A stretch of 64,000 nt of DNA from Candidatus Bathyarchaeota archaeon (GTDB taxonomy: Archaea > Thermoproteota > Bathyarchaeia > Bathyarchaeales > Bathycorpusculaceae), in contig CAVYXJ010000005.1 of the NCBI GenBank assembly GCA_963772455.1, forward strand, positions 1 to 64,000, in the 5' to 3' direction. Below the pieces are notes generated by a model that was not told the DNA's origin, searched no databases, and saw only the letters and a program-made list of their open reading frames with translations. The position numbers were made by a program, and so were the translations under genes. How positions within the stretch are numbered: position 1 is the stretch's first letter; every line of letters begins with the position of its first letter. Shown here in pieces: positions 49,838 to 55,715 of the stretch.

Positions 49838-50766
49838 TTAAGTAGCTATCGGATTACCCAAGCGATTTCGACTCCATTTAAATTGATTTGTATTAAACCA
49901 TAGAGCCACCCCAAGAATTGGCAGCGTCAGCATCCAAAAATCCGTTAAAGGCAAGAAATCACGGTAAACAGGAACCCAAACAGAAACCACATCATAAATG
50001 ACAAAATAAACTCCAACTAGACATATGGCAGCCCCAACAAAGCGAAAGTTGGGTTTTCCATGGCGCCAAAAATCTAAGCAAACAACAGATGTAACTATGG
50101 CAGCAACAAGTAAGGTCAACCAAGAATTCAAAAACCCAAGGAACTCAAAAAAGCCAGTTTGAGGTGGCGCCAAAGATGAGAGCGCATAAACCCAAAACAA
50201 ACCATGCCTAACCCAAAAACCAAACAAGTACAAAGGAGCGACAATAACTACCCACTTAATAATCGAAGAGGTATATTGAGTGTGTTTTAGTTTGTGACTC
50301 AGCATAAACAAAGCAGGGAAAATAAGCAGGGATTGAAGCAGAACGGAAACACCCGAGTAAGAAATTCAAGAAGGCACTCGTTGAAATAATGGACCCGATC
50401 AGATGATTTACCGCCGCAGGTAACAGTAGCAGGAAGTAGAGCGATTCAAAAAGCAAAACAAGCCTAAACTTTTGGAGATATTTAGGGTTATTTTTCAGAT
50501 AAAGTATAGCAGAGTAAACGGCTAAGATAGCAGCTATTAGGCGAAGGTAGCTTCCAACAGAACCAGCGAGTTCTTGGAACAAAAAAAGAACAAGTTGTAG
50601 CTCGGGTTGGCTACTAGTTATGAAATGTGGCAAGACAACAATGTACGGTTGGGAAATTTACAACAAATAGGGTTGTTGTAATTGCCTGATAAAAAGTGTA
50701 GAGCAAAAAAGAGATAGCGACAACGATTAGCGCTGTTTTCATAAAAGAGTTCGTTTGTGGATTCAC
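49838..50766 (-). CDS. Multi-pass membrane protein, frameshifted
   Basis: Consecutive hydrophobic ORF pieces (49838-50311, 50256-50633, and an upstream piece from GTG 50766). Confidence 0.6.
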
Positions 50767-51177
50767 CGCCAATCAGTTTCTTAACAGGTTATTATCCCAA
50801 ATATCAGCTTTAGCTTTTTCACTTGATTTAATAGTAAGGATAGAGAAATCGATAAAGACTATCATATTTTAATGTGCAGAAATGTCTAGTAACAGAAAAC
50901 CAAACTTATCTCAATCAGAGTATTTGTAATATTTCTTGCAGTCGCAGCTATAATCTTACTCAACGAACAATATTGGCACTTCTATACCATATTGGCGGCA
51001 GTCGGATCCATTATCCTTGGCTCAAGTTATAAAAAAACTAATCCACACAAAATACTTAACCTGATAGTTTCTTCAACATAGTTTTGACAGCAACGCCATA
51101 TCGATTTAGACAGTTTTCCCAAGCACTCAATGTAAGACAAATTAAGAACAAAGAACTATATAATTTAGGTGAATGTT

Positions 51178-51339
51178 TTGCGTAAACAACACAGACCAGA
51201 AGGAAATACAATCTCCCCAAACAGGAGCAGTTTAGCAAGAAAAGCAAATGCCGCCAATAGTTCAAGACAAAAGCAAGCCAACGCCAATCGTTCAAGACAG
51301 ACCCAAGCTGACAATTCAAAGAAGAAAAACAGTGCCTAA
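51178..51339 (+). CDS. 53-aa basic hydrophilic microprotein (not in ORF track)
   Basis: AGGTGA RBS at 51167-51172; MRKQHRPEGNTISPNRSSLARKANAANSSRQKQANANRSRQTQADNSKKKNSA with a 10-aa repeat. Confidence 0.55.
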   Translation: MRKQHRPEGNTISPNRSSLARKANAANSSRQKQANANRSRQTQADNSKKKNSA

Positions 51340-51445
51340 ACAAAATACAAAAAATCAATGAACTGCACAATTATGCATCGAAAGATTGGGCGTCAAAAAA
51401 AGAAATCTGATGCTAAGAAATTAGAAATATGGAAATTTAGGTTTC

Positions 51446-51733
51446 CTATCCTTTTGTAAGCACTATTTCAATTGTTGAAACCATTCGTGATCTAGTTTCG
51501 CCTTCTCTTGCCGGCATCTCTTCTGTACCTATCGCGATTTTGCTCACTTTGAGGTCTTTTAGGAAGCGATTTCTTGTTATTTCAGCTGCGTCAACTGCTG
51601 TAGTTATTGCTTGTCCTCTGGCCTTCAAAGTTATTTCTTTTGAATTGCTCGATGACATTCCTGTGATAATCGCTAGAACATAGTCCATGGGCATTTTATT
51701 TCCAATATATACAATTCCTGATCTTTCAGTCAT
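51446..51733 (-). CDS. albA: DNA/RNA-binding protein Alba
   Basis: VYIGNKMPMDYVLA, LKARGQAITTAVDAAEI, VSTIEIVL. Confidence 0.96.
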   Translation of the reverse strand: MTERSGIVYIGNKMPMDYVLAIITGMSSSNSKEITLKARGQAITTAVDAAEITRNRFLKDLKVSKIAIGTEEMPAREGETRSRMVSTIEIVLTKG

Positions 51734-51958
51734 TTCAATCACCATTTCAACAAAACGTTATGCACTATACAATACAACATTACTTATAAGAACAATTAAA
51801 GAAATAGGCGCGTCCAGTTTTTAGTGTTATCAATAGTTGCTTCTTGAAATTGGTCTAAGGTTTTCGATTTTTAATTGTACCATATGATACACATATAGTA
51901 CAATTTGTGCCATAAATGTCGCAATATTTAATAGTTCGCATCCACAATCCAATATTTA

Positions 51959-52179
51959 CAGGCTGAGGAGCACGCTTTAAGATATGCGTTAAAGCAAAGG
52001 AGCGTATTAATTGAAACAGCTGAAAATTGATACGCGACTAATACCTTGCTTTAACGGGCTGGACATAACAGCGTTGCAAAGAAGCAATGAGCTCTATGGT
52101 CTAAACGGTGAAAGATCATTTAGCGATTAAGACATTGCTTTGATGGACCGAAACGCAGTTAAGGCTTAGACTCAGCCTG
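51959..52179 (+). ncRNA. Candidate structured non-coding RNA, family not recognised
   Basis: Nested helices CAGGCTGAG/CTCAGCCTG, GCTTTAA/TTAAGGC, CGTTAAAGCAA/TTGCTTTAACG, GCGTATTAATT/AATTGATACGC, GCAATG/CATTGC; G-U pairs favour the + strand; TATA-like TTTAATA about 30 nt upstream. Confidence 0.65.
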
Positions 52180-52307
52180 CTCTAACTAATTCAACTAATC
52201 CTTCTTCTTCTACCAGACAAAAACAAACAATTAAAAGAAGACTTTGAAATCCTGCTACAACAACGCACCGATACTATGGGTATCAGTACCTAAAAAGTTA
52301 GTTTGCT

Positions 52308-54106: not shown

Positions 54107-55715
54107 TTGAGTCAAAACCAAATGTTCTGTTACCAATGTGAACAAACAGCTAAAGGACAAGGCTGCACAATTGCCGGTGTTTGCGGCAAAACCTCTGATG
54201 TTGCAAACCTTCAAGACCTACTAGTATACAAACTAAGAGAACTTAGCCAACTTGTAATTCAGAGTGGATTAAAAGATGAAAAAATAGGCATTTTTACCGC
54301 TGAAGCATTGTTTGTTACTTTGACAAATGTAAATTTTGATCCAGAAGCAATAGTTGCTTACATTAGAAAAACCGCAGAATTACACGACCAACTGCATAAA
54401 CAACTCCAAATCAAAGCCGATTACTTACCATTAGAAAACACACTCGAAGGCTTAATTGCACAAGGCAAACGCTATGGCATAAATGCTGATTCAACAATTA
54501 ACCCTGACATCCACTCCCTCCAATGGATAATTACATACGGTTTAAAGGGAATTTCAGCTTACGCATATCATGCATATCTTTTAGGCAAAAAAGATCAAAA
54601 AGTCTTCGATTTCATCCATGAAGGATTAGTTGCACCATTCAACAAGTCACTTGGTGCAAACGAGTTAGTAAGTTTAGTTTTCAAATGCGGTGAAATCAAC
54701 ATACGTGCAATGGAGTTGCTTGACGCTGGAAACACTGAAACCTATGGTCACCCAGTCCCAACCAAAGTACCCTTAGGGCACAAAAAGGGCAAAGCAATTG
54801 TAGTTTCAGGCCATGACCTTATCGATTTAGAAAACATCTTAAAGCAAACCCAAGGCACAGGCATAACCGTTTATACACACGGAGAAATGCTCCCAACCCA
54901 CGGCTACCCAAAACTCAAAGCATACCCCAACTTCTATGGCCACTACGGAACAGCATGGCAAAACCAACAGAAAGAATTCGCACAATTTCCAGGCGCAATC
55001 TTAATGACAACTAACTGCATCCAACGCCCAGTCGAAAGCTACAAAGGCAACATTTTCACAGCTGGACCAGTAGGTTACCCAGGGGTTCAACACATCGAAG
55101 GCAAAGACTTCTCGCCAATAATTAAGAAAGCTATTGAAATGCCAGGTTTCCCCGAAGACGTCGAAGGCAAAACAGTCTTAGTCGGCTTTGGCAGAAACGC
55201 AGTACTAAGTGTAGCAGGCAAAGTAATCGAATCCGTTAAGAACGGGCACATAAAACGCTTCTTACTCGTGGGCGGATGCGACGGCGCAAAACCCGGACGA
55301 AGCTACTATCACCGAATTCGTTGAAAAAGCCCCCAGCAACACAATCATACTAACTTTGGCATGCGGAAAATTCCGATTCTTCGACAAAGAACTAGGCACA
55401 ATCGATGACATTCCACGACTACTCGATGTTGGACAATGCAACGATGCATACTCGGCAGTCAAAATCGCTCAAGCCCTAGCAGAAGCATTCCATGTAGAAA
55501 TCAACGATTTGCCACTTTCACTAGTGATTTCATGGTATGAACAAAAAGCCGTTGCAATCTTGCTATCGCTGCTGTACTTGGGTTTAAAGGACATTCGCCT
55601 TGGACCAAGCTTACCAGCTTTCATAACACCAAACATCCTCAAAGTGCTGGTCGACAAATTCAACATAATGCCTATCTCAACACCCGACGAAGACCTCAAA
55701 GCCATAATGAAATAA
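54107..55715 (+). CDS. hcp: Hybrid cluster protein (hydroxylamine reductase), frameshift near 55310
   Basis: [63 protein letters not shown]. Confidence 0.96.

Follow-up and report, generated by a model that had tools for sequence, protein, structure and literature searches.

The ORF-free interval at 51959-52179 (+ strand) of the window gives rise to a circular RNA of 196 nt, which within its family carries one, two or three copies of an arm whose apical loop pairs with the base of the arm in a pseudoknot. The processing route of this RNA is a known one, and the product lies outside every family tested. Overall, the best explanation, which we consider moderately probable, is a gene whose dedicated product is a circular non-coding RNA (ncRNA) that would be transcribed, cut, sealed and refolded, and then kept as the long-lived partner or decoy of a protein. 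The window is the whole 64,000-nt stretch of DNA that was analysed, and is part of contig C5 of a 2.45-Mb genome that is 92% complete (G000, the source genome).

A reading of this DNA made from its letters alone (the sequence-only reading) had described the interval as free of ORFs, closed by a 9-bp and a 7-bp stem and branched into two arms; the ORF listing agreed, and these stems and arms were all present in the predicted fold. It had proposed a fold z-score as a check, and the + strand folded at -74.2 kcal/mol with z = -5.80, a stability that none of 200 shuffled sequences equalled, compared to z = -4.61 for the - strand. The TTTAATA box that it had noted upstream was located at 51927-51933. 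Its branched linear form of ~220 nt did not hold, as the mature RNA is a 196-nt circle instead. Beyond that reading, we found a 4-bp helix with two 3-nt bulges (BHB) within the closing stem, one pseudoknot per arm, and a single module present twice, once as each arm. The features, in window coordinates, were as follows.

51875-51903 and 51905-51924, + strand: two inverted-repeat boxes, candidate transcription-factor sites, conserved in the closest homologues
51927-51933, + strand: TATA-like box, by sequence; an AT-rich box lies at about the same distance in homologues
51959-51967, + strand: 5' strand of carrier stem P1, pairing with 52171-52179 and lost in processing; two-sided changes in 6 of 10 pairs (47 two-arm homologues)
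51959-51967/52171-52179, + strand: P1 in 30 diverse carriers, with two-sided changes in 10 of 10 pairs
51968-51974, + strand: 5' half of the BHB, with helix strand 51968-51971, 3-nt bulge 51972-51974 and cut 51973/51974; helix paired in 99-100%, contig starts at 51974
51974-52169, + strand: mature circular RNA, 196 nt; back-joint 52169->51974 in run X4 and the same junction in X1, X2 and X8
51974-51980, + strand: 5' strand of the 7-bp stem, pairing with 52159-52165, from the circular fold; 5 of 8 pairs two-sided in diverse carriers
51984-52066, + strand: arm 1, with a short closing stem, 13-bp stem, 1x8 internal loop, 10-bp stem and apical loop
52017-52020 with 52058-52061, + strand: arm 1 pseudoknot, four pairs kept in 47 of 47; two-sided changes in the one-arm family
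52071-52156, + strand: arm 2, second copy of the module, by covariation
52106-52109 with 52147-52150, + strand: arm 2 pseudoknot, two-sided changes in 3 of 5 pairs (one pair in 10 sequences, two in 1 each)
52164-52170, + strand: 3' half of the BHB, with helix strand 52164-52167, bulge 52168-52170 and cut 52169/52170; contig ends at 52169
52166-52169, + strand: tetraloop across the junction, closed by the 7-bp stem in the circular fold
52171-52179, + strand: 3' strand of carrier stem P1, followed by a pyrimidine-rich tract, by sequence and covariation
51446-51745, - strand: alba gene (Pfam Alba), a divergent neighbour outside the system

Searches of the window region against Rfam at E ≤ 10, another check named by the sequence-only reading, left the element unmatched and returned two chance-level matches, both downstream; four homologous loci searched at E ≤ 1 returned nothing beyond chance matches. 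A default ARAGORN scan found no tRNA in the window, and an intron-aware tRNA scan of the genome listed none at the site of the element. A tRNA intron was rejected on these scans and because the flanks (~27 nt) form no tRNA. RNase P RNA (RF00373) was unmatched on the element and SRP RNA (RF01857) on the unrotated element; since the canonical RNase P gene (C12:57163-57463) and canonical SRP genes lie elsewhere in the genome, the element is not a divergent copy of either. The sequence-only reading had seen no conserved core of tRNA, RNase P or SRP RNA in it, and its assignment as an independently transcribed ncRNA of unknown class is supported by these results, a conserved TATA-like element and RNA contigs from four studies. 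A Y RNA was rejected, as the Ro60 (TROVE) protein had 0 matches in the 92%-complete genome, as was an H/ACA guide RNA, the ACA-like triplet being variable and paired and the would-be pocket a covarying stem. Resemblances to the hammerhead, the T-box, the RNase P/MRP core, 5S RNA and domain V of group II introns were dismissed, as the order of elements or the pairing was wrong.

Covariation, which the sequence-only reading had also named as a check, was extensive in homologues. Two-sided changes were found at 47 of the 82 modelled pairs in an alignment of two-arm elements (n = 47), with 90% of cells able to pair vs 29-39% in slid controls, and at 38 of 50 pairs in one-arm elements (n = 32; 89% of cells pairing), including 3 of the 5 pseudoknot pairs; these counts treat related sequences as separate and hence are not probabilities. 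In each module, a short closing stem leads into a 13-bp stem and then a 1x8 internal loop, beyond which a 10-11-bp stem ends in a loop of 12-14 nt; four of the loop bases pair with the strand immediately 3' of the arm's stem. The four pseudoknot pairs of arm 1 were kept in all 47 sequences with no two-sided change, those of arm 2 and of the one-arm family covaried, and a fifth pair was mostly missing in arm 1 and one-arm forms. When pseudoknot partners were swapped between the arms of two-arm elements, an arm's own partner was better in 72 of 83 cases, equal in 10 and worse in 1, a result that is supportive only, as the rough pattern used mis-picked ~20 of 216 arms. Classed by length, 124 distinct elements comprised 34 with one arm, 85 with two and five with three. 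The repeated pseudoknot module is a new target for structure work. A standard kink-turn in the arms was rejected, as a Watson-Crick register fits better, and an apparent kink-turn in the core was actually the BHB.

Conserved unpaired bases occur in three places, namely the apical loop, the 1x8 loop and a 7-nt bulge. Together with the one to three tandem modules, this would suit a circle of the form described whose arms are aptamers for a small molecule or ion, making it a stable sponge or sensor for a ligand. The architecture of the c-di-GMP-II and SAM-I riboswitches is similar, with a bent hairpin and a loop that pairs back to the junction. Against such arms, no Rfam riboswitch matched at E ≤ 10, the internal loop departs from the standard kink-turn register, and other lineages have plain rods without a pseudoknot at the same syntenic site; we consider aptamer function unlikely. 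A riboswitch of the c-di-GMP-II/SAM-I type was itself rejected, there being no Rfam match and a downstream gene that is convergent in the window and variable elsewhere.

Circularity was read from RNA. Contigs covering the element, as the sequence-only reading had proposed to look for, were examined for 4 of 23 listed metatranscriptome runs, belonging to four studies, and all four had them; they are sequences of relatives (85-100% identical, depth 2-15) and carry no strand, ends or level. All nine element contigs were confined to 51974-52169, none covered the P1 strands, and the remaining five contigs mapped to 51254-51565. In run X4, position 52169 is joined to 51974, and in X1, X2 and X8 the same junction appears as loose ends or bridging letters. 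The X4 contig, at 226 nt, would be the 196-nt circle plus a 30-nt overlap, as expected of a circle. The canonical BHB, a 4-bp helix with 3-nt bulges at 51972-51974 and 52168-52170, predicts cuts at 51973/51974 and 52169/52170, and the junction coordinates coincided exactly with these predicted splicing-endonuclease sites in all four runs examined. The junction motif occurs neither in the genome nor in any of 526 fetched loci. Alternatively, the RNA could be linear and the joints false ones, produced at its terminal inverted repeat by reverse transcription or by assembly, given that the junction is known from RNA contigs only, at depth 2-15. We give this very little credence, as the joint falls at the same base in four studies and at both BHB cut sites, and it excludes the strongest terminal stem, P1, whose strands no contig covers.

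The BHB was intact in 120 of 124 homologues, with the bulge AGA in 115 of these 120; the four exceptions were a one-arm copy that had diverged and three copies that were degenerate or truncated. Separately, degenerate or truncated copies at L162:1501-1707, L098:1900-2150, L183:2320-2479 and L186:2435-2662 were seen to have kept an arm and lost the BHB core, and such copies are natural tests of the need for circularisation. Changes in the BHB helix were almost exclusively one-sided, with one two-sided case in the 124-homologue set, and the 7-bp stem showed no two-sided change among close relatives, covarying in the wider family only. The registers of the 7-bp stem and the BHB compete in the precursor, and RNAalifold likewise placed the 4-bp helix in competition with the 7-bp stem. 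Predicted precursor energies were -70.9 kcal/mol for the BHB register vs -75.3 kcal/mol for the non-BHB register (4.4 less stable); because the non-BHB register is the more stable in the precursor, cutting would need a minor or protein-stabilised conformer. In the predicted fold of the circle, the 7-bp stem is capped by a UUAG loop that spans the junction, and the conserved cUUAGg hairpin would arise by ligation. Junction loops across the family were UUAG, UUUG and UUCG, with a UCAG variant in 32 of 120; the first three are listed as compatible with the UNCG fold and UCAG is not in that list (PMC6125677). No ORF of the circle exceeds 39 codons.

We hold with strong confidence a biogenesis of five steps. 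The gene's own TATA promoter would give a precursor of ~223 nt, and its ends would fold into the carrier stem with the canonical BHB, as covariation indicates. The tRNA splicing endonuclease would then cut each bulge behind its second base, leaving a 196-nt interior for RtcB to seal; here the circle and its exact junction come from RNA contigs and the enzymes are presumptive. The source genome encodes two EndA subunits and RtcB, which, from the BHB geometry and their presence, are most likely the processing enzymes. Fourth, the ligated junction would refold to the 7-bp stem and cUUAGg tetraloop, abolishing the BHB and leaving a stable RNA with no ends; the junction bases would be invariant because the two pairing registers share them. 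Fifth, each arm would bend at its 1x8 loop, bringing its apical loop into contact with the strand at the arm base, a pairing backed by covariation within a presumed intramolecular geometry. As a sixth step, the circle would serve as a long-lived protein partner or decoy, the best candidate being the PD-(D/E)XK-fold protein c0, with arm number setting valency.

The permuted circular SRP RNA of Thermoproteus, which has its own TATA promoter, a leader/trailer BHB, an endonuclease cut and ligation (PMC4731332), is the precedent for this processing route, and there too ligation makes a hairpin loop at the junction. Unlike it, the present RNA has no SRP match, and has modular pseudoknotted arms, paralogues and lineage-specific cargoes. 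It shares with circles of tRNA introns and pre-16S/23S rRNA the 4-bp helix, the 3-nt bulges and a circle made of the piece between the cuts (PMC7714728, PMC12918454, PMC12558985); in contrast to these, its flanks total ~27 nt and contain no tRNA, and the conserved information sits in the circle. The element has the marks of a BHB-derived archaeal circle, namely a 4-bp helix with two 3-nt bulges on opposite strands, a circle joined behind the second base of either bulge (from RNA contigs only), and EndA and RtcB encoded in the genome. Like the Sulfolobus circular RNAs, it is an archaeal circular ncRNA without an assigned role; in a comparison by description, not sequence, the searched passages of that paper contained no BHB term and no similar family (PMC3326292). 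In the cited papers, BHB circles are by-products or intermediates of tRNA/rRNA processing, the exceptions being one permuted SRP RNA and one mRNA-leader intron, and a literature search outside subscription journals and preprint supplements found known BHB circles only and no family of this kind. The present genes are a family apparently dedicated to making a circle; they occur within an abundant lineage of sediments as well as outside it, and are readily visible in metatranscriptomes.

The element was found by blastn in 62 of 120 genomes of the genus. The covariance model R1 matched 74 of 150 genomes drawn from the order and 24 of 150 from the class; in the phylum draw it matched 7 of 150, and every one of these seven belongs to the class. 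The source genome has one copy by blastn and two by the model, the second being a paralogue of another subtype at C12:49115-49349 (L112:5115-5349). Downstream of that paralogue lies a conserved inverted repeat that has a T run and was also seen in L088-L094. Genomes hold one to four copies, some degenerate or truncated, and neighbours of the RNA vary freely within the genus, as might be seen with a selfish or mobile element (MITE-like, or a retro-copied circle) with no host role. We judge this very unlikely: promoters are kept, covariation is deep, synteny with c0 extends across classes, and the one match in viral contigs lies inside a coding region and is a chance match. With one blastn copy and two model copies, the copy number is too low for a MITE, an alternative that the sequence-only reading had itself raised.

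Upstream of c0 in other lineages, the same carrier holds different, rod-like cargoes of 106-145 nt; these lineages are other families of Bathyarchaeia and four families outside the class (f42, f71, f72 and f73). All cargoes are long, largely paired rods with a UNCG-type cap loop, and from the BHB the rods would be circular as well. The carrier model R3, which was partly built from rod-cargo sequences and so matches these by construction, detected carriers in 37 of the 150 genomes drawn from the class and in 22 of the 150 drawn from the phylum, and in f42 it matched 11 of 13 genomes, the same 11 that have c0. One genome has both types, a rod/one-arm pseudoknot pair formed by L519 (G157:C5:16249-16413) together with L160. 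A pattern search matched 119 of 400 genomes of the phylum, many by chance, and of 20 fetched candidate stretches four passed the stem test; a scan of all genomes was too loose to inform outside the phylum (at least 120 stretches, of which the 80 listed look like chance). Model matches in G277, G377:C8 and G477 had no proper carrier stem and were treated as chance. In 20 other-class loci (L387-L406) the ~1 kb upstream of c0 held no carrier, and none was seen upstream of c0 in the f24 and f51 loci examined. The cargo differs completely from one lineage to the next on what appears to be one reusable carrier, and the family thus shows that circular RNAs built as 'carrier plus cargo' exist in nature.

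c0, a gene of 210 residues, is the divergent neighbour of the RNA at 24 type-A loci outside the genus, with a DNA ligase convergent downstream at 19 loci, and it flanks 14 of the 17 other-cargo loci tested. It is the ancestral neighbour of the RNA, and stays 50-60% identical across lineages while the cargo changes completely. In the source genome it lies on another contig (C7:270044-270676) with no adjacent RNA. c0 sequences form 237 clusters at 50% identity and had no sequence match in Pfam, NCBIfam or PDB. The AlphaFold model (pLDDT 93) matched the PD-(D/E)XK proteins SPO1766 (Z 9.6), XisH (9.2) and AF1548 (8.6), and c0 is thus predicted to be a divergent PD-(D/E)XK-fold protein, a shared fold that shows no function. 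In the class draw, c0 was present in 38 of 40 RNA-positive genomes (one of the 40 probably a chance match and one a degenerate copy) vs 74 of 150 overall, and the RNA was present in 2 of 76 c0-negative genomes, an agreement inflated by the kinship of the genomes and by fragmented assemblies, in which neighbouring genes go missing as a pair. c0 was present in 59 of 150 genomes in the phylum draw, and in all three tested out-of-class genomes with no known adjacent c0 it was found elsewhere in the genome. Against a strict partnership, RNA was undetected in 36 of the 74 c0-positive genomes of the class draw, 25 of them in one family; f38 had c0 in 13 of 19 genomes and RNA in 0 of 19, and f51 had c0 in 7 of 7 and RNA in 0 of 7. 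One genome, G259 (89% complete), had two carriers and c0 unmatched. The complete change of cargo beside a well-kept c0, and the position of c0 away from the RNA in the source genome, count against the partnership too.

The synteny and co-occurrence with c0 suggest, tentatively and at somewhat under even chances, that the circle is a stable binding partner or decoy of c0. A little more speculative is an ancient archaeal RNP in which a BHB-carrier circle with exchangeable cargo might control or guide a PD-(D/E)XK nuclease, in effect as its antitoxin or cofactor in circular form. Repeated pseudoknot units and a linked nuclease-fold gene are also found with type III toxin-antitoxin RNAs such as ToxI. 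Unlike ToxI, the present RNA is circular and BHB-processed, and c0 is divergent or unlinked and has a PD-(D/E)XK fold with no Pfam or NCBIfam family; a type III antitoxin arrangement, with pseudoknot repeats directly upstream of a toxin RNase gene and co-transcribed with it, was rejected on this position of c0. Alternatively, the circle might bind a general host factor (RNA polymerase, ribosome, Alba or exosome) as a stress or dormancy regulator resembling 6S RNA, with c0 merely an old neighbour. The shared rod-and-cap form of every cargo and the several lineages with c0 and without RNA would fit this, as would promoter boxes in common with a dinB-side promoter and a TFS paralogue, whereas a general factor does not predict an RNA found in just 2 of 76 c0-negative genomes; we consider host-factor binding rather unlikely. 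The partnership with c0 would offer the first testable lead on this widespread, unannotated archaeal nuclease-fold protein.

The TATA-like element lies at a fixed distance in homologues, which points to its probable use as the promoter. The same pair of inverted-repeat boxes with a TATA box occurs in the source genome at C10:416198-416260, between small lysW-like and divergent dinB-like genes, and at C13:107415-107475, before a TFS paralogue (gene names by reading of translations); a stress regulon is possible on these shared boxes. A sigma-70 promoter scan was set aside as uninformative for archaea. The sequence-only reading had placed the RNA divergent from alba, which is correct here; the linkage is not conserved, alba being near the RNA only in the closest relatives and 25 kb off in G002. 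Three alba paralogues were seen (window 51446-51745; C7:272841-273136; C10:30178-30417), one of them 2.2 kb from c0. Between the RNA and a convergent 119-aa ORF, which has no match in Pfam, is a 10-bp terminator-like hairpin (52265-52289, - strand). Three overlapping short membrane-protein ORFs at 49838-50772 (- strand) resemble one broken gene; the two that were scanned had no Pfam match. SRP RNA matches at C2:8678-8992 and C5:140801-141115 scored equally, with one at a contig end, and may be an assembly duplicate. At 54107-55715, a prismane (hybrid-cluster) gene is split into ORFs of 405 and 119 aa, the former spanning 375 of 513 model positions, which points to a frameshift or assembly error.
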